IMG/VR virus record: IMGVR_UViG_3300008516_000114
Location: 25,684-89,683 of that record
DNA from: a virus
Length of the DNA stretch: 64,000 nucleotides
Direction: 5' to 3' (one strand)
Below the pieces are notes generated by a model. That model was given only the letters and a program-made list of their open reading frames with translations, searched no databases and had not been told where the DNA came from. Both the position numbers and the translations under genes were made by a program. Below, one piece after another: positions 2,535 through 34,157 of the stretch (positions within the stretch are counted from its first letter, which is position 1; every line of letters begins with the position of its first letter).

Positions 2535-4106
2535 ATGGAACAATCGATAACATTCAAAGCAGATATTGCTAATTTCCAATTTATTCAAGAACCACTTAAA
2601 GTTTCTGTTGGAGAAAAGGAGTATGTTTTTGAACCAGACGTTAGTAAATCATTTTTCCATTTTGATTTGCTTTCTTCTTATCCTACTTTTAATTCAAATA
2701 AATTAACATTTACGCTTCCGATATTAGCAAAGGCGTTTGCAACTGCTATGTATAATCCATTGGATATTGAACATATATTGGAAGGCAATCCTGGTATTTT
2801 CGATCCTGAAAAAGATGCTAATCGCATTATCGGGGCAATGATATTATCTTATTTACCAGGCATTGAAAAGTATGGCGACGATGTACCACTAGTACCCGAT
2901 GCTCCTATACCAATGCGGATCGTTGGCGTTGCATGGAAGCGAATTGCGGATGCCCAGGATTTATTGCAGGGAATGGCAAATGGTGTGAAATGGGGTACAT
3001 CAATGGAGGTTATCAGGAATTCCAGTGAGGATATGTATGTCAATCCTGAAACCAATGAATTCTATGAATTGGGCAGTGTACCAGAAGACTTAAAAGACAA
3101 AGTTGTATTGGCTGTTGGTGGTAAAGGCGATAAGGAAAAAACCACTGTTAATTTCTGGGGTGGCGGATTCACATTATCACAAGCAGATAGGACGGCAAAT
3201 ATTCTTTCTTTGAACGCAGCAATGGCAAACAAGGGAGAGATGACAATGAAGATAGATAAATCAAAAACAGACAAATCGAATATAGAAAAATTATTTGCTG
3301 ATACTAATAAAATTATAATAATCACCGATGGTTCTGCAAGTGGTACTATAATGCAAATAGGTGAAGAGCAAGTTGCTTTTGAAAGTCTTTGGTTAAGTTG
3401 CTCTAAAGATAATAGAGACGATAGAGTATATATGGATTTTTCAGTAGTGAAAGAAAAAATCGGTGATTTTGTTGTTTACCAACGATATGAATTGAAGAAA
3501 AAAGAACTCTTTAAAGCGGAAGGAGATGAGGACATGAATATTATACAACAAGCAAAGAAAGAGTTGAAAGAAGAGGGATACAAGAGTGCTTCCGAGATAG
3601 AGAAAGAGATTTCTACGGTTAAGGAAGGATTTAAGGATTTTGTATCTCCTGACAAGCAAAAGGAATTGGTAGATCAGGCAGTTAAGGACAAGGCAGTGGA
3701 GATCGAGAAAGCAGTTAAGGAAAAATACGATATTCTTTTTGCACGTTTAGGTGAAATGGAAAAAGAAGGTATTAAGGTAACGGTTTCGAGAAAAGAAAAG
3801 ATAATTTCTTTTAAAACAGATGAAGCAGGAAATAAAGAATTCAAGGAATATTTGGATTCTATTAAAGCATCAATTGCGGATATGGAAAAAGTATTGAAAG
3901 AGAAGAATGTTGAATTGAACGATAATTTAAAAGCCAAAATATCGGCATTTAATGGAGTTGATGACCTGGAATTTAAGGCATTAATAGATGGTATCAGCAT
4001 GATTGCATCGAAAGCCAGTGGAGACGATAGAGAAACATTCGTTTTTTCTCCTACTGGGGGGGACATTGATAAAAATAAAGACCCTTTTGCCGGAATGCAC
4101 AAATGA
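2535..4106 (+). CDS. Probable prohead protease/scaffold fusion
   Basis: First gene of the head operon; LDIEH and GTSME in the N-terminal half, charged coiled-coil C-terminal half. Confidence 0.7.
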   Translation: MEQSITFKADIANFQFIQEPLKVSVGEKEYVFEPDVSKSFFHFDLLSSYPTFNSNKLTFTLPILAKAFATAMYNPLDIEHILEGNPGIFDPEKDANRIIGAMILSYLPGIEKYGDDVPLVPDAPIPMRIVGVAWKRIADAQDLLQGMANGVKWGTSMEVIRNSSEDMYVNPETNEFYELGSVPEDLKDKVVLAVGGKGDKEKTTVNFWGGGFTLSQADRTANILSLNAAMANKGEMTMKIDKSKTDKSNIEKLFADTNKIIIITDGSASGTIMQIGEEQVAFESLWLSCSKDNRDDRVYMDFSVVKEKIGDFVVYQRYELKKKELFKAEGDEDMNIIQQAKKELKEEGYKSASEIEKEISTVKEGFKDFVSPDKQKELVDQAVKDKAVEIEKAVKEKYDILFARLGEMEKEGIKVTVSRKEKIISFKTDEAGNKEFKEYLDSIKASIADMEKVLKEKNVELNDNLKAKISAFNGVDDLEFKALIDGISMIASKASGDDRETFVFSPTGGDIDKNKDPFAGMHK

Positions 4107-4120
4107 GATAGGAGGTAAAG

Positions 4121-4594
4121 ATGAGTTTTAAAATTTTACATGGAATGGATGAATTGAACATTGGTTATATGACCTGTGATACGGAATTGGCTAAGGGTAT
4201 CGCTGTTGAGGAAGCCGGTGACGGCACAGAGATCGTCCAGGCTTGTGTATGTGGTTCGCCTTTAGGATTTTTGCTTCAGGATGTTACAGAAGATGGAGCT
4301 TCATACCAGGAATTGGAATTACTGCCAGGCTCGGAGATTTATGAAGTTAAGATCGGCGGTAAGGTTGCTATAATCGATGGTGAAGGTGAAATAGTAACAA
4401 GCCAGGTTGTTGAAACGGGTACTGGTAATTTAGGAGCTGCAACTGTTGAAGATCAGCTTTCGATTCTTAATGGTAAATGGCGAGTTGCACAGACAGGCGA
4501 TACGGTTTGTGGTTTTCTGCGAGGTACTGATTATAATAGTGTTTCTGGTGATTATCATATCCGCAGGATTAAAGGTGGATATATAAAGGCATAA
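4121..4594 (+). CDS. Probable capsid decoration/cement protein
   Basis: 157 aa, Gly-rich beta protein between scaffold and capsid genes; strong RBS. Confidence 0.65.
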   Translation: MSFKILHGMDELNIGYMTCDTELAKGIAVEEAGDGTEIVQACVCGSPLGFLLQDVTEDGASYQELELLPGSEIYEVKIGGKVAIIDGEGEIVTSQVVETGTGNLGAATVEDQLSILNGKWRVAQTGDTVCGFLRGTDYNSVSGDYHIRRIKGGYIKA

Positions 4595-4607
4595 AAGGAG
4601 GTTTAAA

Positions 4608-5678
4608 ATGGGACGAATACTTGATAAAAATTTAGAATTAATGAAGCCTGCTATTGCCGCTATGGAAGATAATCAAAAAAAGAGAAATGCGAGCAAATCC
4701 GAGAGGCGAGAGGCATGGAAATCAACATTTCAGAATTATGAATTAGCGGCATCATGGGCGGCACACCGTAAAGAGGTATTTAATCTTACGGTATTACCGG
4801 ATTTAATAGCATCGGAATTGTTTGAAATCATATCGCTTGAAAAAGGTCAGCGTATCGAGATAGATACGACTTACAATGCGGAATACCAGGTCAAGGAAAT
4901 CAACCAGATGGGTGGAATGGTGCATAACTCCTGGGTTATGCCCAATACAGTTAATATGAGAGATGTATATGAGATTGAAACTGAGGAAGTGGCATATCCT
5001 GTCGAGTCAATCATACAGGGTAATATTGATAAATCCGATGAGGTCAACAGGGATGTCAGGTTTGCTTATGAAAATAAGATAGATTTAGATGTCTGGACAT
5101 TGTTTACAAGCATATTTGATACTTTTACCACAAATGCTACTTACAGATTACATTCGAGAGTTGATAGCGGCAACTTACCAACAACCAATATTGTTGATGC
5201 AAGTGCCGAAGGTGGTTTGACAGTAGGTGCAATGAAACAGTTATTGGCACATTGTGAATTAGCCGGTATAACACCAAGGTTAATTTATCTCTCACCACAA
5301 GACAAACCCGATATATGGGATTGGACAACTGTTGTAGCCGGTTATACCGGTACTACTCCAACACCCCAAGATGTGCTTTCATTGGAAAAGCACGCTGAAT
5401 TATGGAAAAGTGGTAAGATTACCAATATGTTTGGCTATCCTGTTATTTTCAAGACATTGAATTTTCTTGCTCCTGGCAAGGTTTATGTTGCTAGTGATAA
5501 ACCTTCGGGTAAATTGTATTTCAAACCTGATTATGAACGGGTGATTTTCTATACTCAAAATGAATGTCGTAAGCTTATGAAATTACCGAGACATGAAGCG
5601 GTAGGTATAGAAGGTGTCATTAAACCGTTGATTGAAGCTCCGCAATATCTTAATTCGGTGAGACTTGATATTGCATAA
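4608..5678 (+). CDS. Major capsid protein (HK97-like fold)
   Basis: 356 aa, canonical position, AAAGGAGG RBS, GKITNMFGYPV motif typical of HK97-fold capsids. Confidence 0.85.
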   Translation: MGRILDKNLELMKPAIAAMEDNQKKRNASKSERREAWKSTFQNYELAASWAAHRKEVFNLTVLPDLIASELFEIISLEKGQRIEIDTTYNAEYQVKEINQMGGMVHNSWVMPNTVNMRDVYEIETEEVAYPVESIIQGNIDKSDEVNRDVRFAYENKIDLDVWTLFTSIFDTFTTNATYRLHSRVDSGNLPTTNIVDASAEGGLTVGAMKQLLAHCELAGITPRLIYLSPQDKPDIWDWTTVVAGYTGTTPTPQDVLSLEKHAELWKSGKITNMFGYPVIFKTLNFLAPGKVYVASDKPSGKLYFKPDYERVIFYTQNECRKLMKLPRHEAVGIEGVIKPLIEAPQYLNSVRLDIA

Positions 5679-5685
5679 AATATTT

Positions 5686-5706
5686 TCAAAGAGGGATTCT
5701 TTGAAC
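5686..5706 (+). terminator. Hairpin after capsid gene (attenuator or stabiliser)
   Basis: TTCAAAGA-GGGAT-TCTTTGAA inverted repeat with a weak U tail. Confidence 0.4.
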
Positions 5707-5729
5707 AACTTCTTTAATAAGGAGGCAAT

Positions 5730-6083
5730 ATGGCTCAATTTATAAAAGTTAAGCCAACGGAATTGTTACATGGTGTTATACGCCTGAGCAAAAAGGTTTT
5801 CATTAACCCGAATAGTGATTGGCGTGAATTACCAATAACTGCTGAAAAGCCTAAAGATGAAAAGAAACTGGCGGAATGGCAGTTGATGATGGATAAGGTA
5901 AATCATTATTGGACAGTTGGGAAGTTACAGGTTAAAGGCAAAATACCACAGAGGAAAAGAGTCAAGGAAACTTTTTATTGTAAGGAAAAGGATGGACATC
6001 TTAATAGCCCTGTGCCTGTATTCAAGGATGGGTTATGTTCCTTTCATTATAATAAAAAGCATCCGGAGATATTTGCGGGTTAA
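5730..6083 (+). CDS. Hypothetical protein with C-terminal Cys/His motif
   Basis: AAGGAGG RBS; C...C-x-x-H near the C-terminus. Confidence 0.7.
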   Translation: MAQFIKVKPTELLHGVIRLSKKVFINPNSDWRELPITAEKPKDEKKLAEWQLMMDKVNHYWTVGKLQVKGKIPQRKRVKETFYCKEKDGHLNSPVPVFKDGLCSFHYNKKHPEIFAG

Positions 6084-6103
6084 TTGTCAATATGGGGTGA
6101 GAT

Positions 6104-6436
6104 ATGAGCAGGACAAAGTTAAAAGACCATTTAACCGGTGGCGATATAGATTTTGGTGATTTGCTGACGAATATGGCTTATATCAGGCAATATCTAAGTG
6201 AGAGTTTTCCACCTATAATCGAAGATATTACACCAAGTGATACTACCGTACTTTCAGATGTATTATGGATACGATGTGGTACTTCGGGCACTTTAAAGAT
6301 AAGGGATTCTGAAGGCAATGATACTACTCATTCAAATGTAAGTGCTGGTGAGAAATTCTTCGGTAGAATAACGAAGGTATATTTAACAGGGACGACTTGC
6401 ACAGGGATAAGAGCGTGGAAGGTTAAGGGTAGCTAA
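6104..6436 (+). CDS. Head spike-base-like protein
   Basis: ITPSD...G..GTL.I....G.......V.AG......TKVY.TGTT pattern recalled from RcGTA Rcc01079-like spike bases. Confidence 0.6.
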   Translation: MSRTKLKDHLTGGDIDFGDLLTNMAYIRQYLSESFPPIIEDITPSDTTVLSDVLWIRCGTSGTLKIRDSEGNDTTHSNVSAGEKFFGRITKVYLTGTTCTGIRAWKVKGS

Positions 6437-6469
6437 TTGTTAATTGTGAATTGTTAATTATTAATTGGA
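6435..6469. repeat. Five-unit AATTNNN heptad array, copy 1
   Basis: AATT starts at 6435, 6442, 6449, 6456, 6463. Confidence 0.85.
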
Positions 6470-6477
6470 GATGAGAG

Positions 6478-6597
6478 ATGCTGACAGTTTTGAAGGATTT
6501 CTTTTTTGATTTAATAAACATTATCAAAGATACATTTTTGGGCGGTATAAATCACAAACTTGAAGAAGAACACCGAAAACTTGATGAAATCGGATAA
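6478..6597 (+). CDS. Small hypothetical protein (39 aa; not in ORF track)
   Basis: GGAG RBS; MLTVLKDFFFDLINIIK...LDEIG fills the gap between neighbours. Confidence 0.5.
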   Translation: MLTVLKDFFFDLINIIKDTFLGGINHKLEEEHRKLDEIG

Positions 6598-6610
6598 GAG
6601 GAATTAAAAT

Positions 6611-7630
6611 ATGTTATCACAAGAAGAAGTAGCCATTGAATATGTAAAATTTATTTATCAAAATGGTGATGACCATAAAATTAAGCGTGGTGATGATGGT
6701 GCTATATCTGGTTTTACAGGTGGACATTTGTTATCTGTTGCGACTGATGGTAAAGGATTTGAGGATTCGGGGATTAAGAAGGATACAAGTGGTGCAACTG
6801 CTGATAAGGTCGTAACGCTGAAATCTTTACATACCGACAATAGAGTAATAACATTACCTGATGCTACGGATACATTGATAGGGAAAAACACAACCGATAT
6901 ATTAACACTCAAAACATTAACTACTCCAGTTATTGCATCATTTTATCGGGATGCAGGTAAGACAAAATTAATGACAGTGCCAAATGTGGCGAGTGATACA
7001 TTGGCTTTACTCGCTGCGGTACAGATATTGACAAATAAGAGATTAAATAGCCCAAAGATTAATGAAGATACGATTTTATCTTCTGCCTCTTCTGCAATCG
7101 ATGATGCAGTGGATAAGAAACACGCAAAACCAGATGCTAATTATGATTTCTCTGCTGGTTCATGGGATTATCCGGACAGTAATCCAGCACCTTTAGATAC
7201 GGATTCCGGTACTAATGGGACTGCAAAACGAATTTTATTTGATGATACCACTGAAGAATTTATTATAGATCAGATTAAACTTCCAGGTGACTTAAATGCT
7301 TTGGGAACAGTAACGTTCGAGACTTATGGCCATGCAGTGACATCGGTAGCGGACAAAAAAGTCCAATTGAAATTTTACCATTGTGCAAAAGCTGCAGGTG
7401 AAAGTTGGGATGCTGCTTTTGCCTCAAAAGTGAGTGGAGATAAAGATTGCGATTCTACACAAGACGAAAAAGGATTAGACCATTTTACCTGGACAGAAAC
7501 GATTGCAAATTTGGGCTGGGCTGCTAACGATTTTGTGAGGATTAAGCTATCAAGAATAGCACCTTCAGAAAACAATCTGAGTGGAGATTATGGTATTTTC
7601 CATTTCAGAGTTAAGATACCGAGAACATAA
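6611..7630 (+). CDS. Probable head fibre/spike protein
   Basis: RVITLPDATDTLIG, LTNKRLNSPKINE fibre motifs followed by a beta-sandwich-like C-terminus. Confidence 0.65.
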   Translation: MLSQEEVAIEYVKFIYQNGDDHKIKRGDDGAISGFTGGHLLSVATDGKGFEDSGIKKDTSGATADKVVTLKSLHTDNRVITLPDATDTLIGKNTTDILTLKTLTTPVIASFYRDAGKTKLMTVPNVASDTLALLAAVQILTNKRLNSPKINEDTILSSASSAIDDAVDKKHAKPDANYDFSAGSWDYPDSNPAPLDTDSGTNGTAKRILFDDTTEEFIIDQIKLPGDLNALGTVTFETYGHAVTSVADKKVQLKFYHCAKAAGESWDAAFASKVSGDKDCDSTQDEKGLDHFTWTETIANLGWAANDFVRIKLSRIAPSENNLSGDYGIFHFRVKIPRT

Positions 7631-7644
7631 AGAGGAGTATTATT

Positions 7645-8316
7645 ATGGCGTTGGAGCTTGATGGGTTAGGTGTTATTAATATTGGAGAACCTATAGTATT
7701 AGACCAAGATTTTTCGGCAATTACATTATCTTGTTGGATTAAACACTCTACAGGAGATGTATCTCCTACTGATTATATTTTAGGCAAGGGATCTATGTGG
7801 TATTTAATGTTTAATAATCCAACAATATGTAAGTTCAGACACTTAAATCTGGGAATTGCAAATACTTCGGTTACTGTACCTGCTATTGGAACTTCTTGGC
7901 ATTTTATTGTTGCTACTTACAATGGAAGTAGAACAAATATTTATTTAAATGGAGTGGATTATGATGGTAATACTGGATTATCTGGAGGTCTGGGAACTAA
8001 TGATGTGAATGTCGGAATAGGTAGTTATTTTGGTGATACTCCTTTTTGGAAAGGCTCCATCGACGAAGTCCGTATCTACAACCGCGCCTTGAGTGAAGCA
8101 GAAATTAAGATTCTTTATAATTCAAGAGGGCAAAATATAATAACCAAAGGTTTAGTAGGTTATTGGAGAATGAACGAAAAACCTGATGGAACAGCAGCAA
8201 GTGGAGCTAATTCCATTATAGATTTAAGCGGATATGGAAATCATGGAACACCAGAAGGCGGACCAATTTATCGGGCAACACCCAATAAGATATATATTCC
8301 GAGAGTGATAGCATAA
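7645..8316 (+). CDS. LamG/concanavalin A-like lectin domain protein
   Basis: ITLSCWIK, WHFIVATYNG, IYLNG, GSIDEVRIYNRALS, GLVGYWRMNE. Confidence 0.92.
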   Translation: MALELDGLGVINIGEPIVLDQDFSAITLSCWIKHSTGDVSPTDYILGKGSMWYLMFNNPTICKFRHLNLGIANTSVTVPAIGTSWHFIVATYNGSRTNIYLNGVDYDGNTGLSGGLGTNDVNVGIGSYFGDTPFWKGSIDEVRIYNRALSEAEIKILYNSRGQNIITKGLVGYWRMNEKPDGTAASGANSIIDLSGYGNHGTPEGGPIYRATPNKIYIPRVIA

Positions 8317-21567: not shown

Positions 21568-21813
21568 ATGAAAAATCGAGCTGATAAAGGTAAATTAAGA
21601 ATTATAAGTGATGGATCTTCAGAGGGTACTTATATTTATGATGATAACGGAAAAGAAATGCTTTATATGACTAATATTCAAATAAATATGAGTTTTGATA
21701 AAGATGAAGTAAGTACCGTTATTGAAGTAATCAATGTTGAATCTGATATTCAAATAGATATTGATAAAGTCCAGATAAAACAAAAGAAAATAAAAGATGA
21801 ATCCAGTAAATAG
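21568..21813 (+). CDS. Hypothetical protein
   Basis: AAGGAG RBS; LRIISDGSSEGT motif. Confidence 0.7.
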   Translation: MKNRADKGKLRIISDGSSEGTYIYDDNGKEMLYMTNIQINMSFDKDEVSTVIEVINVESDIQIDIDKVQIKQKKIKDESSK

Positions 21814-24800
21814 TACACATGAAGCATTAATAAACGCAAAGAATCAGTTGCCGATTAGTCGTGTAACTATCTTTGACACTTGCAAAACAGTTCCGAGTAA
21901 GGGGTTCAATGTTTATTTCTATACATTACCCGATAGTGATAATACAACTCTTGATGCCATTCTTAATGATTCAGATCCTTTTTGGTATGCTATGGAAGAT
22001 GTTATACTGCAGTTAGGCAGTAGTGATATTATTGAATATTCAACAGCGTTAGCATTTGATTGGGGTGTAGGTGGATCACCATCACCTGTCAGCCAGGCAC
22101 ATCTGTTTGGTATAAAGTGGACAGGTTATTTTTATGCAAGATATACAGGAGTATATAGATTTTATATTGATTCATCTTATTTTGCAAGACTGAGAATAAA
22201 ATTCAATGGTTCTTATCTTACATTCAAAGATCCCGATGATGACTCGGAAGTTGATTCATGGGATGCCGATTTGGATAATACAGATGAACTATATGCAGAC
22301 ACAGCATCATTAACAGCAGGTGATTGGTATGCGATACAGATAGAATTTGCAGTTGGCAGGAGAGAAGAATGTACCGATCCGACTTATCTCTGTGTGAAAT
22401 ATAAAGAGCCTACAAGTGTAACAACAGGGTATGATCTCTGGGGTGATAGTGGCGGTGATATTGTTGCCGATTATCCTTCAGATAGTGATAAAAAAGTATT
22501 ATCTGCTGGTGTAGTAAATACTGCAGGTAGTTTTTTATCAGGCGATGAAATTACCGATATAGTTAAATCGGTATCAGGTGGAAAATCAAGAGGGGAGAGT
22601 GCTCAATATCAATTCGATGTTGCAGTAGCAGTTTCAACATGGCTAACAGATCCAGGTGGTGTTTCGGCGGAGGATACTGAGATCAATGTAGGTTCTACCG
22701 AGGGATTGCCCGATAAGGGTAAATTGATTATAGGAAGTGGAACGACAACCATTACATATACAAACAAAGATGCCACAACTTTTAAGGGTATTCCTGCTAC
22801 CGGAGATGGCAGTATAGGTGGTAGTTATGTACAATATACAAGAATTACACTACATACGGGTAAATATTCATTTAATCCATATACAAAAGATTTCGGTATT
22901 ATAAAGCCTTATAGGCTCGTAAAGATAGAATTAGGACATAGAAGTCCGAGTACGGAAACAAACTATTACAGTAATGTTGTCTGGGGTCATATATTCCCGA
23001 ATCCACAGTTACAGCGAAGTAAAAACGAGGATATTCTTACTATTTATATGCAGGACTTCAATAATATGCTGGGCAGTATTCAGCAGAACTATCCGGATAA
23101 TGCTTCATACTCAGGTGCAAGCTATTATAATAAATTAACATCCGGCGAACCCGATGGGCAGGAACGACCTGTAGCTTATGATCGCTGGAAATGTGAATAT
23201 GCAGTCAGAGATATATATATCAAGGCTAATATCGATCCCATTTTGACATACCAGAGAAAGCGTTTACAAGTAACCGGAGATTACGCTCCCGATTATGGGG
23301 GATATCTTATAGATGCTGATTTCCAATTGAATTATCAGCCGAACTATGGGAATCCCGGCAGTGTAGATAATCCCGATGATAAATATTTATGGTTTTTTGG
23401 ATATGGCAAGAAATTAATAGAAATGCTTGCCTCTTTTGCAAAGACATTCGGACGTAGAATAGGATTTGATAATAATGGATTTGCTAAATTTTCAAGTGTT
23501 GGACTTCCTACAAGCAAGATGGATGTTGGAGATGCTGCGGAATCAGGTACATGGTCGGAAGAAACAGTAGATTTCGATACACTCGAAGGTCATTACAAAT
23601 CGTCAACTGAACTTAATGCTTATCTGTCTTTTACGGCAACCGGAAGTGAGTTTATATTACTGGTTGGCAGGCATTCGACTTTCGGTGGAATAAAACTTGA
23701 GGTAGATGGTGGTGTAGTAACAGTGATTTATATAGATGGAAAATATGTTATTAGTGATTTAGGTGTATATGATCTGGATTATGCAGGAAGAACATCAGAT
23801 AATCCCTGGTTCTATTATGAGGGTGTTGATAGTACAGGCAATAATCCATCTGAAATACGAATAAAGACTAAATATGATTATGGTGTGCATACTGTGAAAG
23901 CTACAGTTCAAAGCGATGCGAATGTTTTCATTGACGGACTTTTATGTTATGATAATACTCTCGATTATCCAGTTAGAGATATTGAAACCGATAGAGTTAA
24001 AGATAATTTAAACACAAAATTCGATATTGAGAATACACGCAATGAAATGATTGTAGTCGGTGCATTACAGGGCTTATTTCAGAATAGCGAAGGACAGATA
24101 GTCAATCCTAATAATCCGATATATTTGCATTTATTCTCCAAAACCAGTGATGTTTATTCGATTTATGATTCGAGTAATATTGATTATGTAGGTAGAAAAT
24201 TACCCTTTGAAATATATGATCCCAAGATCAATTCGCAGGAATGGGCAGATTATATCAGTACACAAAATGTCATTAAGTACCGGTCAGCGGTTTTTCAACC
24301 ATCGGTTACTATCGATGGCGATATGAGATTAGAACCTGGTGATTGTATTACTGTTAAGGATTTAAAGACCAAGACAACAACAGATAGCGATAATCTCTGG
24401 GTCGAGCAGGTCAGACATGATTCTACAATAGATAAAGATGGTAAGATTCAATTCATTACAGGTATCGAGACAGTACCGAGAAAGCCGGTAAAGAGTTTTG
24501 AACGCCGTCCTGCACTCGATCTATCCGATTGGCATGATGAACCGATTATAAATATTGAATTGAGAAGTCAGGGTAAGCGAATAAGTGGTAATGATGTAAC
24601 TATCGATGTAGTAGGGGGAACTATTACCATAGATAATGATCCTGATTGGGACACCAATATGTGGGCAGGGTATTTATTTGTGGTATTTGGGACAGTTACA
24701 AAATCAGGGAATATATACCCGGTTTTAATTGACAGCATAGCATCTAATACAAGTGATACTATTACATTATCGAATATAACAATAACAGATTATACATTTG

Positions 24801-26575
24801 GCGAGGATTTAACATGGTGTATTAGTTTCGATCCATTTGATACAGACCAGAAGGGCTCTCCACTTGAGATACATTACGACCAATTAATTACGGGTATAGT
24901 AGAAATTTATATTGTAGATGAAGAAGATAGATATGTAGCTCTTGTTAATCCTTCAACAAGCAATGAGATTGTTGAATGGGGTTCAGGAAAAGTTGCTTAT
25001 TGGTCGGGCGTTTTTGAAAAAGGAGAGGATAATACTAATTACTATGTTAATGACGAATTATTTCTGTCGGATGGAATATTAAAACGTCCACTTTCCGTTA
25101 TGTTTCAAATAACAGATATTGATACAGATAATTTATATAAGATTAAAAGTAAAATAATAGATGAGCAATATGCTGGAATAGTACCACCCGATGCCAATGT
25201 TTACACAGCATTGCAGGAATCGGATTATAAAAAAAATGATATTTATTCAGCAGCGATTTTTCCATATATAATCAATTCCCCGCCGATTCTGTATTTAGAA
25301 GACGAGGATGAATCATTGATTATTAATTCAGGTAGAATAGTAAATCATTCTATTGAATCAAAATGGGTTGAAATAGACAACGATATTAATTGGGTTGAAG
25401 ATGAAAGCCCTGATGATTGGGTGGGAAAAACAATATTCTTTTCGATAAATAGAAAGCCTGATGGTATTTATAAACATGCATATAATTATTTTAAAATAGA
25501 TTCTACATCTGATCAAGGTGATGGTATAATCCGGATAACAATAGATGCTCCCTATACACAAGAAGGTCTTTATGAAGGCAGTTGGACTATGGGTAAAAAA
25601 ACGGATTTTTATTATGCTATTTTTGCTGATGAACCATTTTCTAAATTTGATAGTAATGACAATAGTTTTAATGGGTTAAGTTTACACATAGTTCAAGCAA
25701 ATATTTATGTTGACGGCGATTTCCAGTATAAAAAAGTTGGAGATGACATTAAAGTTACAAATAATTTCAAAATAATTTATAACGATATCGAATATTCTTT
25801 CAGTGCGGATGATATTATAAATTTCTGTTGTTTTTCAAATTGGGAATATGATGCAGATGCAAATTTTAGAATAATTTTCTGGAATAAGTACAATCCGACA
25901 AAACTTTATTATACTTATTTTGCTGATAGTTACACTGATGTTGAACATTATAATTTAATTTTTTCCAAATTATTTAATCCAAGAAATGGTCTGTATCCAA
26001 TTTATGCCGGAATGGTAGATGGAGATTTCATTAGGGAAAACTTATTAGATTTTCCTATAGAGAAATTAGAAGAGGCAGGTATTTATTGTAATATAGAACG
26101 CAGAGATTTTTCAATTTTTGATGGCGAAGTACATGAATGGGATAAAGCAGATGATAGTGATATACCAATTGAAAATTTCCCCAAGTCAAGTAATATTAAA
26201 AATATCTATGTCAACCCGGAAAATAATAGAAATGCGTTCCGTGATCTACCCTATGAAACTGATAAAGATACGGAATATATGGGGAGATTATTTGTTTTTG
26301 ATGCTGATTTCAGAGATAGGGCTGGTAGATATGCAATTAATAATAGTAAACATACAGGTTATAAAAATTGGTTGGGTGTTGCATTAACACACCATAGGGC
26401 ATCTTTGTTTGACAAAGTATTTAAAACAGAAAATATTAAAATAGATTCATTACCTGTTGTATGGCATCCTTTAACAAATGATGGCACGAAATTAATTTCA
26501 ACACATAGTGGTTCAATTAGCAGCCCAAATTTATGGGGTATACAAGACATATTAGTAAAATTATTTAAAAAGTGA
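21797..26575 (+). CDS. Large tail tip/hub protein with PA14 domain
   Basis: FGIKWTGYFYARYTGVYRFYI...LTAGDWYAIQIEF (PA14); RNEMIVVG and GDMRLEPGDCITV (tail hub motifs). Confidence 0.85.
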   Translation: MNPVNSTHEALINAKNQLPISRVTIFDTCKTVPSKGFNVYFYTLPDSDNTTLDAILNDSDPFWYAMEDVILQLGSSDIIEYSTALAFDWGVGGSPSPVSQAHLFGIKWTGYFYARYTGVYRFYIDSSYFARLRIKFNGSYLTFKDPDDDSEVDSWDADLDNTDELYADTASLTAGDWYAIQIEFAVGRREECTDPTYLCVKYKEPTSVTTGYDLWGDSGGDIVADYPSDSDKKVLSAGVVNTAGSFLSGDEITDIVKSVSGGKSRGESAQYQFDVAVAVSTWLTDPGGVSAEDTEINVGSTEGLPDKGKLIIGSGTTTITYTNKDATTFKGIPATGDGSIGGSYVQYTRITLHTGKYSFNPYTKDFGIIKPYRLVKIELGHRSPSTETNYYSNVVWGHIFPNPQLQRSKNEDILTIYMQDFNNMLGSIQQNYPDNASYSGASYYNKLTSGEPDGQERPVAYDRWKCEYAVRDIYIKANIDPILTYQRKRLQVTGDYAPDYGGYLIDADFQLNYQPNYGNPGSVDNPDDKYLWFFGYGKKLIEMLASFAKTFGRRIGFDNNGFAKFSSVGLPTSKMDVGDAAESGTWSEETVDFDTLEGHYKSSTELNAYLSFTATGSEFILLVGRHSTFGGIKLEVDGGVVTVIYIDGKYVISDLGVYDLDYAGRTSDNPWFYYEGVDSTGNNPSEIRIKTKYDYGVHTVKATVQSDANVFIDGLLCYDNTLDYPVRDIETDRVKDNLNTKFDIENTRNEMIVVGALQGLFQNSEGQIVNPNNPIYLHLFSKTSDVYSIYDSSNIDYVGRKLPFEIYDPKINSQEWADYISTQNVIKYRSAVFQPSVTIDGDMRLEPGDCITVKDLKTKTTTDSDNLWVEQVRHDSTIDKDGKIQFITGIETVPRKPVKSFERRPALDLSDWHDEPIINIELRSQGKRISGNDVTIDVVGGTITIDNDPDWDTNMWAGYLFVVFGTVTKSGNIYPVLIDSIASNTSDTITLSNITITDYTFGEDLTWCISFDPFDTDQKGSPLEIHYDQLITGIVEIYIVDEEDRYVALVNPSTSNEIVEWGSGKVAYWSGVFEKGEDNTNYYVNDELFLSDGILKRPLSVMFQITDIDTDNLYKIKSKIIDEQYAGIVPPDANVYTALQESDYKKNDIYSAAIFPYIINSPPILYLEDEDESLIINSGRIVNHSIESKWVEIDNDINWVEDESPDDWVGKTIFFSINRKPDGIYKHAYNYFKIDSTSDQGDGIIRITIDAPYTQEGLYEGSWTMGKKTDFYYAIFADEPFSKFDSNDNSFNGLSLHIVQANIYVDGDFQYKKVGDDIKVTNNFKIIYNDIEYSFSADDIINFCCFSNWEYDADANFRIIFWNKYNPTKLYYTYFADSYTDVEHYNLIFSKLFNPRNGLYPIYAGMVDGDFIRENLLDFPIEKLEEAGIYCNIERRDFSIFDGEVHEWDKADDSDIPIENFPKSSNIKNIYVNPENNRNAFRDLPYETDKDTEYMGRLFVFDADFRDRAGRYAINNSKHTGYKNWLGVALTHHRASLFDKVFKTENIKIDSLPVVWHPLTNDGTKLISTHSGSISSPNLWGIQDILVKLFKK

Positions 26576-26590
26576 ACGGAGAATTAAAAG

Positions 26591-27796
26591 ATGAGACCAC
26601 AACAAGAGACAATAGAAAAGCGAATAGATGAGAAACAGCGCCCTGAAGAACATATAAAAGAATATGGTTCAAAAGGATTGTTCATAAAATCCGAGAAATA
26701 TTCTAAAGAGCCACTGGAGGATATAAAATTCAATTGTCGATTTTACAATGAAGAAAAAACAGCATACAGCGGTAACTCTACTATAATAATAGACTCCGTA
26801 CTTACCTGTGCCGGTGCTTCTAATTATGATTCTGATTCAGATGGAGTCTGGACAACAGTTTATACAAGTGCAGGGGCATCATGGGTGATAGATCAATGGG
26901 CTGGTTATTATTTAAAAACATCTGGTTTATATTTTTATATTAAATCAAATACTGCTACCGCATTAACAATAAGGGCAGTACCTGGTATTGAACCGATAGA
27001 TGGTGATTTTGAAATTGTGCCATTTATTGCTCATTCAATGTATGGGGCGGAACTGAATCCTGATACGACACAGGAAACGGTATTTCAAATCGTAAATAAT
27101 ACCGATACAACAATAACCGTAGCACCGAACAATGATTCTTTTCTTACAGATGTAGCTGTTGCTACCGACCCATTTACAGTTAAGGGTTATTATGCACCGT
27201 GTTTAGCAGATTTTACCGATACAGATGAAGGGCAAGATGCCGGTGTTATTCAGTCTAAGATAGTTAATGCCCCATTTGGTAAATTAAATGATAAGAATAT
27301 GGGGCAATACTTCATTGGTGTCTACTCGGTTAGACTTATGACATTTAGAAGCAAAACCGTTCGATTAAAATTAGATGTTCCCGATAGTTTGAGAATAGTG
27401 GAATACGAATCGGATAGAGAGGCAGTGCTTGTAAATTCAAGATTCGGACAGAATAAAGTACAGTTCATAAGTTTATATTTTATGGCTAATGTATGGAAAC
27501 GATTAGATATATTCTATTACACAAAAGATGGTGATTACGGATTCACTATAACAGGAGCAGATAAACCGATAGGTGATTATATAGATGCCTGGAGCGATGT
27601 AACGCCGGAAGTACCTCAATGGGTTAGTGGATATCCCGAAGGACAATTAAGACAGATAGAATTGAGATGGATCAACACAGGATTATTAGGGCAAGGGGGC
27701 GGTACACAGATATTCCGTTCTGATGATGATGGTGCAACATATTCTTTCAAGGCATTTGTTCCGTGGGATCATAATACATATTTTGATTCCAGTTAA
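26591..27796 (+). CDS. Tail protein ending in the N-terminal part of an FN3 domain
   Basis: C-terminus PEVP...IELRW...TQIFRSDDDGATYS...TYFDSS then stop. Confidence 0.8.
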   Translation: MRPQQETIEKRIDEKQRPEEHIKEYGSKGLFIKSEKYSKEPLEDIKFNCRFYNEEKTAYSGNSTIIIDSVLTCAGASNYDSDSDGVWTTVYTSAGASWVIDQWAGYYLKTSGLYFYIKSNTATALTIRAVPGIEPIDGDFEIVPFIAHSMYGAELNPDTTQETVFQIVNNTDTTITVAPNNDSFLTDVAVATDPFTVKGYYAPCLADFTDTDEGQDAGVIQSKIVNAPFGKLNDKNMGQYFIGVYSVRLMTFRSKTVRLKLDVPDSLRIVEYESDREAVLVNSRFGQNKVQFISLYFMANVWKRLDIFYYTKDGDYGFTITGADKPIGDYIDAWSDVTPEVPQWVSGYPEGQLRQIELRWINTGLLGQGGGTQIFRSDDDGATYSFKAFVPWDHNTYFDSS

Positions 27797-27869
27797 AAGA
27801 TATTTGATAACTTAAATAAATTTAGAAATGTCGATAACTTAATGAGAAAAAAAACGAAAGGAGAAAACA

Positions 27870-28019
27870 ATGGAAATTATGATAGGTTCTATATCAAATA
27901 TAGATAATCGTGGAACTCCTTTTACCGAACAGTGGGTTGGTGATGTTGAAAGATTATTATTAGAAATTGGAGATTTTACACTGTTAGAAAACGATGATAA
28001 AATATTAACGGAGGATTAA
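27870..28019 (+). CDS. Small virion-associated protein (49 aa; not in ORF track)
   Basis: AAGGAG RBS; ends RLLLEIGDFTLLENDDKILTED (LLLExGD-type motif). Confidence 0.7.
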   Translation: MEIMIGSISNIDNRGTPFTEQWVGDVERLLLEIGDFTLLENDDKILTED

Positions 28020-28022
28020 ATA

Positions 28023-28226
28023 ATGGCCGATACAAAAATAAGTGAGTTACCCGCAAAAACAGAATTAGAAGCAACTGATCATTTTGTAGTTGCAGAAGGA
28101 ACAACAAGCAATAAGAAGGTATCTTTAGCGACGATGAGAAATGAAATAGGTAGTGGTTCGGTTCACATTTCACAGGCCGAACCAGACAACCCTGTGACGG
28201 GCATGATTTGGGTTGATTTACCATAA
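28023..28226 (+). CDS. Fibre N-terminal anchor protein
   Basis: MADTKISELP start typical of phage fibres; ends ISQAEPDNPVTGMIWVDLP. Confidence 0.8.
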   Translation: MADTKISELPAKTELEATDHFVVAEGTTSNKKVSLATMRNEIGSGSVHISQAEPDNPVTGMIWVDLP

Positions 28227-28245
28227 TATAAAAAAAGGAGCAATA

Positions 28246-29499
28246 ATGATTTCAATATTCACACCACATTTTGAAGGTACAAATCCATATATCAATGAGA
28301 CTTATCGTTCATTGTTAGCACAAACTTATTTGGATTGGGAATGGGTTATTTTGGTTAATAACGGTGGTATTGTACCAAAGTCAATTACTAAAGATAAAAA
28401 AGTACATATTTTTACATATCCAGATGATAAGCCTTCAAATATTGGGGCATTGAAAAAAACAGTTTGTGGTCATTGTAAAGGTGATATTTTATTAGAACTT
28501 GATGCTGATGATCTTCTTACACCAGATGCTTTGAAAACTATTGAGGAGGCATTTCAGGATCAGAATATTGAATTTGTATACTCTAATTCTGCCCAGTTTG
28601 AACATGGGACATGGAAGAGTAGTGGTTATTCGGAATACTGGGGCTGGAAATCACGACAATTCTATTGGCATGGTCACATTCTTCAAGAAATGATTGCCTT
28701 TCCACCTACCGCACATTCTATTCGTGGAATATGGTGGGCTCCAAATCATGTTCGAGCCTGGCGTACTGAAACTTATCATAGTATTGGTGGGCATGATCCT
28801 AAATTACTTGTAGCAGATGACCATGATCTAATTTGCCGAACTTATCTTAGTGCAAAAATGAAACATATTGACCGTTGTTTATATTTATATCGGGTTCATC
28901 CTGGTAATAGTGTTAAACGTTTTAACCCAGAAATTCAAGCGGGTTCTTGGAAAAATTATGAGAAATATATTTTTCGTATGGTAGAATACTGGGCTCGTGA
29001 AAATGATTTGAAGTTGATTGATTTAGGGAGTTCACACGGTAAACCGGAGGGTTATTTAGGATTAGATTGTGAGTCTAATGCAGATTTAGTATGTGACCTT
29101 GAAAAAGGCATTCCAATGTCAGATAATTCTTGTGGAATTGTACGAGCCCATGATATACTTGAACATTTATCTCCAATTCCTATTATGAATGAGATTTATC
29201 GGGTATTAGCTCCGGGTGGATGGCTTTTTGTATCAGTACCATCTACTGACGGGCGAGGGGCTTTTCAAGACCCAACACATATTTCCTTTTGGAATCCTAA
29301 TTCTTTTTGGTATTACACCAATCCGCAATATCAGAAATATGTTCCATCGATCAAGGCTCATTTTCAAGTATCAAGAATAGTGAATTGGTTTCCATCTAAT
29401 TTCCATAAACAAAATAATATTTCTTATGTTGATGCTCAATTAATTGCTATAAAAGATGGCTTTCAAGCACCAGGAGAATGTCTATGGCAGAAACTTTAA
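28246..29499 (+). CDS. GT2 glycosyltransferase fused to class I SAM methyltransferase
   Basis: ISIFTP, SLLAQTY..WEWVIL, ELDADD, ADDHDL; then [35 protein letters not shown] before ATG 28246. Confidence 0.92.
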
Positions 29500-30899
29500 A
29501 AATCCGTAACGAAAATAATGATGGTTGGTATGAATTTGGATACCAGGGTAACCAGGGATATCAAGGATTGACAGGTGCTCAAGGTAATCAAGGATTAACT
29601 GGTAGTCAAGGTGATCAAGGGGTAACTGGTTCACAAGGCTCTCAAGGGCAAACTGGTTCTCAGGGCTCTCAAGGCTCTCAAGGTAATCAAGGATATCAGG
29701 GAGATCAGGGTTCTACAGGAGCAACTGGAGCACAGGGAGATCAAGGACAAACAGGAGCCCAAGGTAGTACAGGCTCACAAGGTAATCAAGGATATCAGGG
29801 TGATCAAGGGAGTGCAGGAGCAACTGGATCACAAGGAGCTCAGGGTCAAACTGGGGCTCAAGGAGAAGTTGGTGCTCAAGGTAGTGTAGGGGCTCAAGGA
29901 GATCAAGGAAATCAAGGGGCAATTGGGGCAGCAGGTATTGAATGGCAAGGTGTCTGGAATGGAGGGACTGAATATTTTGTTGATGACGCTGTTTCGGAAA
30001 GTGGAACTTCTTATATATGTATTCTAGGACATACAAATCACCAACCTCCAAATGCAACATATTGGCAAGTCTTATCTTTAGAGGGTGCTCAGGGAAGTGT
30101 AGGGGCTCAGGGAAGTGTAGGAGCTCAAGGTAATCAAGGAGCTGTTGGAGCACAAGGTGTTACAGGTTCCCAAGGTTCGCAAGGAGCAACTGGAGATGTT
30201 GGAGCTCAAGGACCAACCGGTAACCAAGGCAACCAAGGAGAAACAGGTGTTCAAGGGGCTACAGGCTCACAAGGAAGTCAAGGAGCTACAGGAGATGTTG
30301 GAGCTCAAGGTCCAACTGGAAATCAGGGTAATCAAGGAGAAACAGGAGCTCAGGGTGCTACAGGCTCACAGGGTTCACAAGGAGTGCAAGGCGCACAGGG
30401 ATTATTGGGTGATGTTTTGGCTCATGCCGTAACTCTTGAAGGAGATGGGGCTTTTACAGGTGGAATGTTTAGAACAGCAGCGACAGGGCAAAGGATCATT
30501 ATGACTGGAAATAGTTTAAAATTTTATAATTCATCAAACGAACTTATGGAAATATGGGGATTAACCTCTCAATCCCCTTGGAACACAAAAGGATTTTATT
30601 TTAATCAACCAATTATAGCTGTTTCTGATATGTATTGCAATATACTTCATACAGGTATTATATCAGAAAAAGCAGGTACATCTGATGGAGTTACGATAGA
30701 TGGGGTGTTGCTTAAAGATAATTTTATTGCAGAGGCTGCCATACCTTCCTCTATTGCTCGTGATACTGAGTTGGTTGAAACGTCGAATGGCTCTGACCAA
30801 AACGAGGAACCATCTGGTGGGAAAAATGGAGATATGTTTTATCGTTTTAATGGAGAAGTTTATTTGAAGATAGCGGGTACTTGGCGACAAGTTGCATAA
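29478..30899 (+). CDS. Collagen-like fibre protein with central carbohydrate-binding-like module
   Basis: Two long G-X-Y tracts ([12 protein letters not shown]) flanking [11 protein letters not shown]...DAVS..GTSYIC...PPNATYWQV. Confidence 0.92.
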
Positions 30900-30926
30900 T
30901 CTAATTATAAAAGAGGATAAATAAAA

Positions 30927-33900
30927 TTGATAGCAGAAAAAACTTACTATTATAAGCTAAGACATAAAAACGCCCGTGGTGATCTATCAGATTATTCTTC
31001 AGTGGAAAATGCAGCATCACTAGCTGAAGCGAGTGATAATAATACATTATCAATTAAATGTCAATGCGGTGATAGAAAATTAAATATTAACACAGCTTAT
31101 TATAAAATTGGAGATTCTTTGATAATAGACGTTACATCTCAATTGCCATTAACAGCAGAACCCGTTGTAACAATAGATAATTATAATATAGGTGTGGCGG
31201 ATAGTAGCACAACAGATTATCTAAGCAATATATATTTACCTCTTCCTATAGCAGATTTTCAAAGGAGTAGTACAGCACAATCAGTAAATAATCCAGCAAA
31301 AACAGTAACGCTTGATGTGGGGGCATCTGCTGTCAATGATTTTTATAAAGATATGGTACTGGTAATGGATAATGAGCAACACAGAATTACTGCTTACAAT
31401 GGAGACACAAAAGTTGCAACAGTAGAGGGTTCTCCAGCGTGGGGTGCAGGTACTTATCAGATTTATTTATATCACCAAGGCACGGTGATATTAAAAGCAA
31501 CAGCAACAGTAAAGCAGGGTGGTACTTCGATACAGACAGAAGTTGATATCATGCTTGATTTTATTGCACCAACAGTAACAGGAACGCCTATTATCATAGA
31601 TACAAAAAATAACGACCAAATACCAGAAAATGTACCCTATGCTTATAAAGCTGAGATGATATGGATATTTATTACCGATGATGTTTCAGATACAAGTGGC
31701 GATTCCAGCGAAGCAGCGGGGTTGAATAAAGTTTATTTACAGAATGCTTTTGTAGGATTAAGTACATCTACACCAGGCGATACTCTTGTGGATAGTGTAT
31801 TGGCTAATATTTTTGACGATGATTATTGGAACGATTATTATTTAACTGATTCCGGGGGTATGGTATATCAAATATTAAATTATATTGGTGCAACAGGAAC
31901 ATTTGAATTAGATGATACTTGTGATGATGGTGTTTATTATGTAACAAAATATGATCCAACCGATACCGCTCATTATAGCGATTGGAAAAATTACGATGTT
32001 CAAAATTACCAAGTATTTAATTGGAATCTTACTATAGAGATGCCATATAATAAGGATGAGATTCCCGATACCGGGCAACCAGGAAATGGCGGTAGTGTAG
32101 GCGGAGAAGATGCGTATCTTGATACAGACCATAAATATAAAGTGGTAGCAAGATTCACCGATAATGCTGAGAATTTTTCTAATATCTGTTCAGATGATAT
32201 TTATCTAGATAAGACACCACCATCATCACCAACAGAATTTACAGCCAAGGGAATGTTAGAATCTATTTTATTAACATGGCAAAATCCAGCCGATCTTGAT
32301 TTAGATAAGATCAATATTTATATGAGGGATCGTGAAGGTATATGTTCTGGAGGCATACCAACGAATTATGATAAAACTATTTATATACCCAATGCTATTC
32401 CAGATAAATATATGGAATATACAATTTATTTTCAAGAACCCGACCCACAGCATAAATACTTTATATTAACAGCAATGGATAAAGCGGGTAATGAGAGTAT
32501 TTGTTCAAGTGAAGAAGATGCAATATCATTTGGCCATTGGGGCAAGATATTCAGGAACTGGCTGGATAATTCATCTTTCGAGAGAACTGTGCCTAGCGAT
32601 GCTAATTTACCAGTTAGTCTTCTTAAATCAGGCTCTCCGACAGTAGAAACTTCATCTCAATATGGTAGTAATAGCATTTTAGTTGATCAGAATGATTATT
32701 ACTACTATGATTATATGTGGTTACCTGCAAGTCCCGATACATATTTCTTCACTTTTAGTGTTTATGCAAGATATGATACAAATTGTCAAGCTAAAATAGA
32801 GATAAAGTTTTATGATTCAAATGGAGACCAAACAGGTTCTACTATTACTTTATTAACAGGAAATGAATTAGGGGATTCTTTAACTGATACCTTTGTACGC
32901 TATCATGCACATTTCGGCGTTGAGGGCAATACCATACCATCTGATACTACATCTGCAAAGATTTATTTCAAATCTGATAGCGATACGAATAAAGCTTATT
33001 ATGATGCCGTCCAATGGGAACAAGTTACTGCTATTGATTCAGATCCCACAGATTATGTAGAAGGCAGGGTAATATCCGGCGATAGAATGATGGCTCATTT
33101 TATACGTGGTGATCATATAGAATTTGATACGATGATTGGTAATCATTTCAAAGCGGTTTCGATTCAAACAAGCAAATTAGAAATAGCCAGCGGTGAAAAT
33201 CTTGTGCCTAATTCAGCATTTGAATCAGATTTTGCATACTGGACATACGATGCTGATTTCAGTTTGAGTGATACTCGTATAGTCTATGGAAAACAATGTG
33301 CCAAATTAGTATTAGCAAGCGCTGAGGGTTATTTAAAATCCGATTATTGTCCTATTAAGCAAGATGCTGATTATTGCATAAGTTTCTATTATTATCTTGA
33401 TGCTTTGGGTGATGATCTATATTTCAAATTAGAGCAATATGATAAAGCCCATGTTATAGGTACGACTACTACAATGAAATCCTCCAATTTTACAGAGGAT
33501 GCTTGGACAAGATTTGAATATCAAATGACTGTTTTTGATGCTGATGCTGCTTATGTGAAAATTTATATTTTATGTGAGGAAGATGGATTAGCCACCACTG
33601 GTTATTTTGATGCTTTCCAGATAGAGCAAATCGCATCAGCTACGCAGGGTGCAAGTGATTATAAAGGGAAAACCAGGATAGTTGGCGAGGAAATTACAGC
33701 GGGTAAGATTCAATCAGCCGATGAAAAGACTTATTTTGATCTGGATAATTCTGTAATTGTTCTCGATCATCCAACAGCAGATGTTAAAACTGTATTAAAA
33801 TCTGATTATCTTGCAAAGACTTTTGACGGAACTAATTATCATAAATATCCAGTTGTTATAGTAGCAACCACAACAGCAGAGGCAGATGGTAGCTTGGAGT

Positions 33901-34157
33901 ATTCTTTATGGTGGAATGCCGGAGCGACTGATGTTTTCAATTTAGGTAGTCGAGCAGAATATATGAATTTATACATAGTATCAGTTTTGGAGAAGGAGAC
34001 GGGTTGGGATGTATATCAAAATTATAAAGCACTTGCCAATGATATTAAAATGCATCAGAGTGTAGAATTAGATGGAGTAGCAATTACTGCAGCAGCTGGT
34101 ACTTTCACTAACAATGCTGATATTAGAATAGTGTTTTTAAGTTCTATAACATGGTAA
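30927..34157 (+). CDS. Large tail/host-specificity protein (FN3 and carbohydrate-binding-like domains)
   Basis: TTG start with AGAGGA RBS; DKTPPSSP...LTWQNP...AMDKAGNES FN3; two NxxxNSxFE...YxDAxQxE beta-sandwich repeats. Confidence 0.88.
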   Translation: MIAEKTYYYKLRHKNARGDLSDYSSVENAASLAEASDNNTLSIKCQCGDRKLNINTAYYKIGDSLIIDVTSQLPLTAEPVVTIDNYNIGVADSSTTDYLSNIYLPLPIADFQRSSTAQSVNNPAKTVTLDVGASAVNDFYKDMVLVMDNEQHRITAYNGDTKVATVEGSPAWGAGTYQIYLYHQGTVILKATATVKQGGTSIQTEVDIMLDFIAPTVTGTPIIIDTKNNDQIPENVPYAYKAEMIWIFITDDVSDTSGDSSEAAGLNKVYLQNAFVGLSTSTPGDTLVDSVLANIFDDDYWNDYYLTDSGGMVYQILNYIGATGTFELDDTCDDGVYYVTKYDPTDTAHYSDWKNYDVQNYQVFNWNLTIEMPYNKDEIPDTGQPGNGGSVGGEDAYLDTDHKYKVVARFTDNAENFSNICSDDIYLDKTPPSSPTEFTAKGMLESILLTWQNPADLDLDKINIYMRDREGICSGGIPTNYDKTIYIPNAIPDKYMEYTIYFQEPDPQHKYFILTAMDKAGNESICSSEEDAISFGHWGKIFRNWLDNSSFERTVPSDANLPVSLLKSGSPTVETSSQYGSNSILVDQNDYYYYDYMWLPASPDTYFFTFSVYARYDTNCQAKIEIKFYDSNGDQTGSTITLLTGNELGDSLTDTFVRYHAHFGVEGNTIPSDTTSAKIYFKSDSDTNKAYYDAVQWEQVTAIDSDPTDYVEGRVISGDRMMAHFIRGDHIEFDTMIGNHFKAVSIQTSKLEIASGENLVPNSAFESDFAYWTYDADFSLSDTRIVYGKQCAKLVLASAEGYLKSDYCPIKQDADYCISFYYYLDALGDDLYFKLEQYDKAHVIGTTTTMKSSNFTEDAWTRFEYQMTVFDADAAYVKIYILCEEDGLATTGYFDAFQIEQIASATQGASDYKGKTRIVGEEITAGKIQSADEKTYFDLDNSVIVLDHPTADVKTVLKSDYLAKTFDGTNYHKYPVVIVATTTAEADGSLEYSLWWNAGATDVFNLGSRAEYMNLYIVSVLEKETGWDVYQNYKALANDIKMHQSVELDGVAITAAAGTFTNNADIRIVFLSSITW

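Follow-up and report, generated by a model that had tools for sequence, protein, structure and literature searches.

The division of a phage gene by inserted DNA is known for a small number of replication enzymes, where inteins, introns or extra tails for interaction usually make good the damage. In Aeromonas phage Aeh1, the nrdA gene is split by the homing endonuclease mobE and its product works as two polypeptides (Crona et al. 2011, PMC3045599, in the part of the report available to us). Here, we describe a tail gene of an uncultured phage that is divided within a single FN3 domain. The DNA analysed (the window) is a stretch of 64,000 nucleotides (nt), positions 25,684 to 89,683 of the IMG/VR virus record IMGVR_UViG_3300008516_000114; the record is 89,683 bp long with direct terminal repeats, and its DNA is present in metagenome runs from marine sediment. 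A late, tail-like row of genes lies on the + strand and is composed of a 1592-residue protein, a 401-residue open reading frame (ORF), four smaller ORFs and a 1076-residue ORF. Our analysis confirms that one FN3 domain is split between the 401-residue ORF (the N-half) and the 1076-residue ORF (the C-half) by the cassette of four ORFs that lies between them (table 1).

Aeh1 NrdA is, by analogy, what we regard as the closest precedent. In that case too, inserted DNA has divided into two ORFs a gene that related phages carry whole, and the pieces are translated separately and assemble non-covalently, a route distinct from RNA splicing, protein splicing and DNA rearrangement (PMC3045599, available part); for the window we infer the same route. 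As far as the available part of that report allows comparison, the two loci differ in their cargo, which here consists of 3.1 kb with four structural or modification genes and no recognisable endonuclease, and in their product, which here is a virion protein rather than an enzyme and is cut inside a beta-sandwich of about 90 residues. The halves in the window also have no extra tails, so that the split domain itself is the proposed glue. Fractured genes that combine split inteins with a free-standing endonuclease form another class (Dassa et al. 2009, PMC2677866); the examples in the accessible part of that paper carry protein-ligating split-intein fragments, whereas the window has zero extra residues at the break and matches no intein or endonuclease family. 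Mitochondrial cox2 has likewise been divided by insertion into two complementary genes (PMC5374615), although it belongs to another type of genome and encodes a membrane enzyme, and the available part of that source describes no single small domain split by functional cargo genes. A search of the literature found no natural split FN3 domain and no strand complementation in a phage tail, subscription papers and supplements being mostly outside its coverage.

For the fold itself, Dutta, Batori, Koide and Koide, writing in Protein Sci in 2005, are said to have divided an engineered human fibronectin FN3 domain at a loop and to have seen the two fragments reassemble non-covalently. By analogy with that system, fragment complementation is physically plausible for this fold; the engineered pair is a laboratory construct, whereas the pair proposed here would be natural and maintained, and would join two large virion proteins. 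In chaperone-usher pili, donor-strand complementation completes an incomplete immunoglobulin (Ig)-like sandwich with one or more strands of another polypeptide and produces a very stable extracellular link. Pilins, however, are built without one of the strands and depend on a chaperone, whereas the domain considered here is a canonical FN3 split 5+2 by an insertion, and there is no homology between the two.

A preliminary description of the window, made from the sequence alone, had supposed that an ancestral gene was interrupted by the cassette, and uninterrupted relatives were found. A HMMER protein search with the N-half returned 55 proteins at E ≤ 0.001. The closest, P0002 (1814 residues), is 59% identical and aligns residues 5–393 with residues 5–400 of the query; in BLASTP the N-half falls on P0002 residues 1–393, and the match of the C-half begins at P0002 residue 397. 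P0003 (1785 residues) is 47% identical to the N-half, and P0004, P0015, P0018 and P0020 are further N-half homologues of 1640–1911 residues. The gene is uninterrupted and collinear across the break in P0002, P0003, P0004, P0018, P0020, P0030 and L003, the last being the sole locus recovered from metagenome contigs with alignment A2. L003 also preserves the gene order: a 1596-residue ORF (3100–7890) is followed directly by one uninterrupted ORF of 2484 residues, and the cassette is absent from the latter.

At the break itself, alignment A3, which compares the two pieces from the window with seven uninterrupted homologues, sets them side by side at columns 80 and 81 with neither gap nor overlap. 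The Leu at the position of the TTG start is matched by Leu in six of the seven. Where L003 reads GAC GCC GGG followed directly by CTT GAC GGG, the window reads GAT TCC AGT, then TAA, the cassette, and TTG ATA GCA. This fit between the abutting ends far exceeds a chance match of motifs. The N-half ends in ...FVPWDHNTYFDSS immediately before TAA, and the C-half, read from the TTG at 30927, begins (L/M)IAEKTYYYKLRHKNARGDLSDYSS. This TTG was called as the start by two independent gene callers (the JGI/IMG and Logan records), and an in-frame TAA at 30918 excludes a translation start further upstream in the C-half frame. Shine–Dalgarno-like cores precede 18 of the 36 long ORFs in the window, compared with 13% of random 19-nt windows.

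The identity of the domain rests on structure prediction and Foldseek, because the Pfam fn3 model finds no match in either half (E ≤ 0.1) nor in five uninterrupted homologues (E ≤ 1). An AlphaFold2 model of the uninterrupted L003 domain (L003:8880–9191; alignment A3) has a mean predicted local distance difference test score (pLDDT) of 92.6 and a predicted template modelling (TM) score of 0.83. It contains seven strands, at residues 9–17, 19–25, 35–41, 49–55 and 60–64 before the break and at 71–79 and 92–95 after it. Foldseek returned at least 458 matches in the PDB at E ≤ 0.001, the top ones being FN3 domains (1x5z, 4n68 and titin Fn3 among them) with query-normalised TM scores of 0.75–0.81. 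As modelled, the domain is a seven-strand sandwich of the layout A, B, E / C, C', F, G and is assigned to FN3 by fold, not by Pfam family. The strand map of the homologue, combined with the alignment, places the break in the predicted E–F loop, with strands A–E upstream and the F–G hairpin with its tyrosine corner downstream.

These results agree with the preliminary description on the positions of both ORFs, on the presence of four genes including a fibre in the gap (Pfam Collagen and PHROG 5073 matches), on a single FN3 domain running across both genes, as seen in the model of the uninterrupted homologue, and on nothing having been lost or duplicated where the pieces meet. Its view that neither half has decayed also holds: both are intact ORFs, the N-half with its own stop and the C-half with its own ribosome-binding site (AGAGGA) and TTG start.

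The same break is present in a second lineage. P0063 (968 residues, on a 4327-nt contig), obtained in a C-half search of proteins clustered at 90%, has the exact break residue as its first; its N-terminus is MIAGKTYYYRLRHRTNRGDLSDFSS, an opening also given as MIAGKTYYYRLRH.... Its identity to the C-half is 73% in a central stretch of 564 residues and 60% in the first 107 residues. P0064 (424 residues, on a 4793-nt contig), obtained in the N-half search, is 70% identical with full coverage. It follows the FN3 domain to ...FVPWDHNMYID and then diverges into an unrelated tail, its frame running on for about 25 residues where the window has TAA; this insertion-derived C-terminal tail resembles those of Aeh1 NrdA (PMC3045599, available part). 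Judged from the sequences, a start codon placed exactly at the break and an exit at the same loop do not fit truncation by contig ends.

Conservation between the two lineages is high in the pieces of the divided domain. Strands A–E (residues 335–401 of the N-half) are 86% identical between the window and P0064, compared with 67% for residues 1–334, and the F–G hairpin is 76% identical between the window and P0063, compared with 50% for the whole C-half and 35–53% for the next 80 residues. The orphan half-domains rank with the best-conserved segments between the two split lineages, and the split at a shared residue appears to have persisted across about 30% protein divergence.

Elsewhere in the C-half, identity to P0063 is 70–90% over residues 201–720. 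The final 350 or so residues of the C-half, approximately 721–1076 (33087–34157), are about 20% identical to P0063, and some 70–80 residues near the C-half N-terminus (31236–31475, residues 104–183 approximately) are additional in the window. The distal divergence looks like module exchange and fits a swapped host-binding tip.

Other members of the family end or begin elsewhere in the same domain. The N-module homologues P0005, P0007 and P0016 (474, 461 and 362 residues) all stop about 10 residues past FN3 strand B (...IILRF.P...); P0005 occurs on 10 contigs, the longest of 37,746 nt. P0051 begins with M at strand B. From sequence comparison, these ends and this start may mark other break points in the same FN3 domain.

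Taken together, the locus is most readily read as an old insertional 'gene in pieces', in which an ancestral gene was cut exactly between two codons by 3.1 kb of co-oriented cargo. In the ancestor, one gene would have encoded the whole of a long protein of the tail or of receptor binding, made up of a conserved anchor module at the N-terminus, a hinge of FN3 type and a distal part that is long and variable; the four-gene cassette would have entered this gene in the FN3 E–F loop. The halves would now be translated separately from the late operon, after which the A–E fragment at the C-terminus of the 401-residue protein and the F–G hairpin at the N-terminus of the 1076-residue protein would re-form one FN3 sandwich by non-covalent fragment complementation. 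Re-formation would in turn re-attach the distal host-binding part to the virion-anchoring part. That both halves are made, and that the 5+2 strands rebuild the domain and so tie the 1076-residue distal part to the 401-residue anchor module, has in our estimate a probability of about 0.6. Support for it is indirect and comes from the shared break in a relative of about 70% identity and from the strong conservation of the half-domains. A broader proposal, which we put forward only tentatively, is that the FN3 hinge might be a natural plug-and-socket, with a five-strand socket on the anchor module and a two-strand plug on the receptor-binding module, and that it might be a recurrent point of fission.

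Several observations weigh against re-formation of the domain and the long persistence of the split. The A–E piece shows no extra conservation relative to the fused homologue L003, to which it is 52% identical compared with 57–59% for the whole protein. The stand-alone N-modules of 461–474 residues in other relatives suggest that the N-half might work alone. In an AlphaFold2 model of the 401-residue protein by itself, residues 44–335 mostly have pLDDT above 90, and the partial FN3 domain is of lower confidence, with values of 61, 72, 57, 82, 83, 81 and 69 in ten-residue blocks over residues 341–401. P0063 and P0064 were compared as proteins from two separate contigs, their common phage origin being assumed. 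The sequence after the stop in the window shares K-x-F-D and DNL repeats with the P0064 tail, a similarity without statistical significance (its score was equalled or exceeded in 944 of 2000 shuffles). The four runs compared come from two samples, and all runs with the locus, no RNA run being listed among them, are from one study that is possibly the source of the record, and so they are not independent; and, while none of the four has a listed contig joint that skips the cassette, contigs can hide rare excised variants.

Part of this evidence favours a reading in which the insertion split the gene and the FN3 domain is not rebuilt, the N-half serving by itself in the baseplate or as an anchor, the C-half being an independent fibre attached through other contacts, and the FN3 remnants being vestigial tails. 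Such a reading accommodates the N-module proteins that stop early in the same domain, P0005 with its 10 contigs among them, the lower confidence of the partial domain in the N-half model, and the many different C-terminal extensions with which the N-module occurs in the family. It sits poorly, however, with remnants that are among the best-conserved segments between the split lineages and that keep all the fold-defining residues visible in alignment A3; furthermore, general protein chemistry would predict that a five-strand FN3 fragment with an exposed core is unstable or aggregates unless completed. This is the strongest of the alternatives, and on balance we consider it rather unlikely that the domain is left unbuilt.

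The shared break might instead have arisen more than once, a mobile cassette having entered this FN3 loop each time by a site-specific, homing-like process, in which case it would say little about long-term function. The left junctions do differ, with an immediate TAA in the window and a tail of about 25 residues in P0064, and the similarity beyond the break is not significant; the ends of P0005, P0007 and P0016 after strand B and the start of P0051 at strand B would also be in keeping with more than one insertion. Yet the four ORFs of the cassette match no nuclease, recombinase or transposase family in Pfam, PHROGs or NCBIfam, and neither direct or inverted repeats flanking the insert nor a target duplication were found above chance. 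In the ungapped register, moreover, the window TAA aligns with a Ser of P0064 and is followed by the shared K-x-F-D, an arrangement compatible with one event and a point change. Recurrent insertion is an improbable origin for the shared break; re-formation of one FN3 domain from two maintained halves remains the reading we prefer.

Rejoining of the halves, which the preliminary description had raised as an alternative at the DNA or RNA level, could proceed by excision or rearrangement of the cassette, RNA splicing, translational bypass or protein trans-splicing, and found little in its favour. A join would be exactly in frame, and the short repeats TAAAAGA (27794 and 30908) and TTGATA (27804 and 30927), to which that description had drawn attention, do occur near both junctions; they are at chance level, with 32 and 79 occurrences on the window + strand, and a common 7-mer is present in 12% of 40-nt window pairs drawn at random. 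Excision would leave traces that are missing here: no junction repeats above chance, no recombinase, and no joint across 27796–30927 in four of four runs, with the limit on rare molecules given above. The contig joints that are listed lie inside the collagen repeats only, and one 256-nt contig that touches 27946–27966 and 29407–29425 does so with 21 and 19 letters, too short to count. Rfam at E ≤ 1 gave no group I or II intron over 26000–32000; its single sub-threshold match, to the skipping-rope RNA RF02924 in the collagen repeats (30246–30324; 20.5 bits against a gathering threshold of 36.7, E 0.37), is most likely due to chance. Nor are there extra residues at the break, relative to the seven homologues, that could form split-intein halves, and no intein family was matched (Pfam). 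Bypass of the T4 gene 60 type operates over a short non-coding gap, of 50 nt in that gene (10.1101/2022.08.31.505936, available part), whereas the gap here is 3130 nt and contains four ORFs with ribosome-binding sites. The P0064 frame also reads on into the insert. Rejoining at any of these levels is very unlikely.

The arrangement of the DNA was checked against Logan per-run contigs, and those from four runs bridge both junctions, so that the split is real DNA and not the assembly artefact that the preliminary description had allowed for. Run X1 has one contig of 13,468 nt over 26600–32600 with 0 differences; in X2, record 7 spans 27128–32074; X3 and X4 have contigs over the left junction (26600–29882) and over the right one (from 29853 onward) at a depth of about 200. 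That the locus was misassembled, or that its gene died recently in a defective genome, is the least probable explanation of all. The record does come from metagenome assembly, its completeness is put at 68% by CheckV, and all the runs that contain it are from one study, but these separately assembled runs agree at the junctions without differences, each half stays open over a long stretch of this AT-rich genome, and the halves of a diverged relative with the same break, of 424 and 968 residues, are intact.

Table 1. Features of the divided tail gene and its surroundings; positions are those of the window.
Feature	Position	Strand	Description and basis
Upstream neighbour, 1592-residue tail protein	21797..26575	+	ORF; weak PA14/GLEYA-like domain; synteny anchor
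N-half of split tail gene	26591..27796	+	ORF of 401 residues, ATG start; conserved beta-rich N-terminal module and predicted FN3 strands A–E
FN3 strands A, B, C, C', E	27593..27793	+	3' end of N-half, residues 335–401; alignment A3 and strand map of homologue model
TAA stop immediately at break	27794..27796	+	DNA reading
Cassette including flanking spacers, 3130 nt	27797..30926	+	four ORFs co-oriented with tail operon
orf49, 49 residues	27870..28019	+	no Pfam, PHROGs or NCBIfam match
orf67, 67 residues	28023..28226	+	no Pfam, PHROGs or NCBIfam match; no longer homologue; no phage tblastn match
GT2 glycosyltransferase–methyltransferase fusion, 417 residues	28246..29499	+	Pfam Glycos_transf_2 8.2e-11, Methyltransf_11 8.1e-7
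Collagen-like tail fibre, 471 residues from ATG 29484	29484..30899	+	Pfam Collagen 1.9e-39; PHROG 5073 'tail fiber protein' 7.3e-89
Shine–Dalgarno-like AGAGGA	30912..30917	+	9 nt 5' of C-half TTG
C-half of split tail gene	30927..34157	+	ORF of 1076 residues, TTG start; predicted FN3 strands F–G, Ig-like domains, CBM-like domain, variable C-terminal tip
FN3 strands F–G, tyrosine-corner hairpin	30927..31001	+	first 25 residues of C-half; alignment A3 and homologue-model strands E71–79, E92–95

Domain assignments outside the divided FN3 are weaker. The Pfam PA14 and GLEYA matches of the 1592-residue neighbour are both below cut-off, as is the CBM_4_9 match of the C-half (5.1e-4), and a second FN3-like domain in the C-half is a by-eye impression of the sequence. 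Foldseek found no convincing whole-chain match in the PDB for the fold of the N-module, only weak, partial PA14/Flo/Epa-like matches. Promoter and terminator scans were at shuffle level.

Wider searches for the divided gene returned little. In IMG/VR, scans with the N-half, the C-half, P0002, P0003, P0005, P0063 and alignment A5 returned no loci; scans of GTDB genome contigs with alignment A2 and P0063 found nothing; and tblastn of INPHARED phages gave no match for the N-half or orf67. The uninterrupted ORF at L003:7887–15341 is P0002-like and owes its length of 2484 rather than 1814 residues to an internal direct duplication of more than 600 residues, which may be genuine or may have arisen in assembly. 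Two fragmentary proteins of the P0002 type, P0059 and P0065, are filed in NCBI under metagenome-assembled genomes of Candidatus Marinimicrobia / Neomarinimicrobiota, which is either a hint at the host of this phage group or a binning artefact.

The cassette has a guanine-plus-cytosine content similar to that of its flanks except in the Gly-codon-rich collagen repeats. The longest ORF of the fibre gene starts at 29478, and AGGAG at 29472–29476 favours the second ATG, at 29484. The glycosyltransferase–methyltransferase (GT/MT) fusion has full-length relatives of 38–48% identity in IMG/VR contigs. Related viral loci number 18 in all, and 8 of them (L004, L006–L011, L017) have collagen-like ORFs on the same strand at a distance of no more than 8 kb, which suggests that in phages this enzyme tends to accompany collagen-like fibres. 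What the cassette contributes is probably an accessory collagen-like fibre, presumably glycosylated.

Some GT/MT homologues are themselves found in two pieces, about 1.08 kb apart in L012/L013 (8001–9011 and 10089–10274) and about 0.45 kb apart in L017 (8001–8696 and 9150–9653); insertion, an intron or domain shuffling could each account for these two-piece matches. In the window, orf67 ends in ...AEPDNPVTGMIWVDLP. Collagen fibres beside GT/MT genes in L005–L007 start with PNSPTDG...W...W just before the repeats, which PDNPVTG in the window resembles at the level of a motif, and the fibre might therefore itself be split by the GT/MT gene. Such a nested split of orf67 and the collagen fibre is not adopted here, there being no longer homologue of orf67 and only a local match of 7–11 residues.

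In the 73-nt spacer that follows the N-half stop, GATAACTTAA is present as two exact copies 27 nt apart (27806–27815 and 27833–27842). Both read DNL in the N-half frame, and the P0064 tail also has two DNL; across the window the sequence is not enriched (13 found, 11.2 expected).

A second gene of the same phage may also be in pieces, judging from sequence matches. Two ORFs some 22 kb before the window (L023:1283–2155 and L023:2898–3710), separated by 742 nt, encode a UvrD-like helicase, the first with a complete PF00580 (8.2e-58) and the second with the end of UvrD_C (3.5e-32). The gap contains two small ORFs of 82 and 86 residues, of which the latter is Cys-rich.

What sets this locus apart is that the cut passes through the core of a beta-sandwich of about 90 residues in a virion protein, and that the cargo consists of functional structural genes and not of a selfish nuclease. 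It also carries a warning for annotation, in that neighbouring genes both labelled 'hypothetical tail protein' can encode the parts of a single divided protein. If re-formation of the domain is true, a natural split-FN3 pair would become available to protein engineers, in the manner of split inteins or tag/catcher systems; should the plug-and-socket proposal hold as well, the locus would provide the first split-FN3 coupler to have evolved naturally, and with it an orthogonal protein-ligation pair ready for use. For phage biology, re-formation would mean that a single small domain can be a self-complementing joint between large structural proteins, and a plug-and-socket hinge would allow phages to insert accessory fibre cassettes and to swap distal modules. 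A joint of this kind would provide a route to separable and exchangeable tail modules, with a bearing on the evolution of host range.

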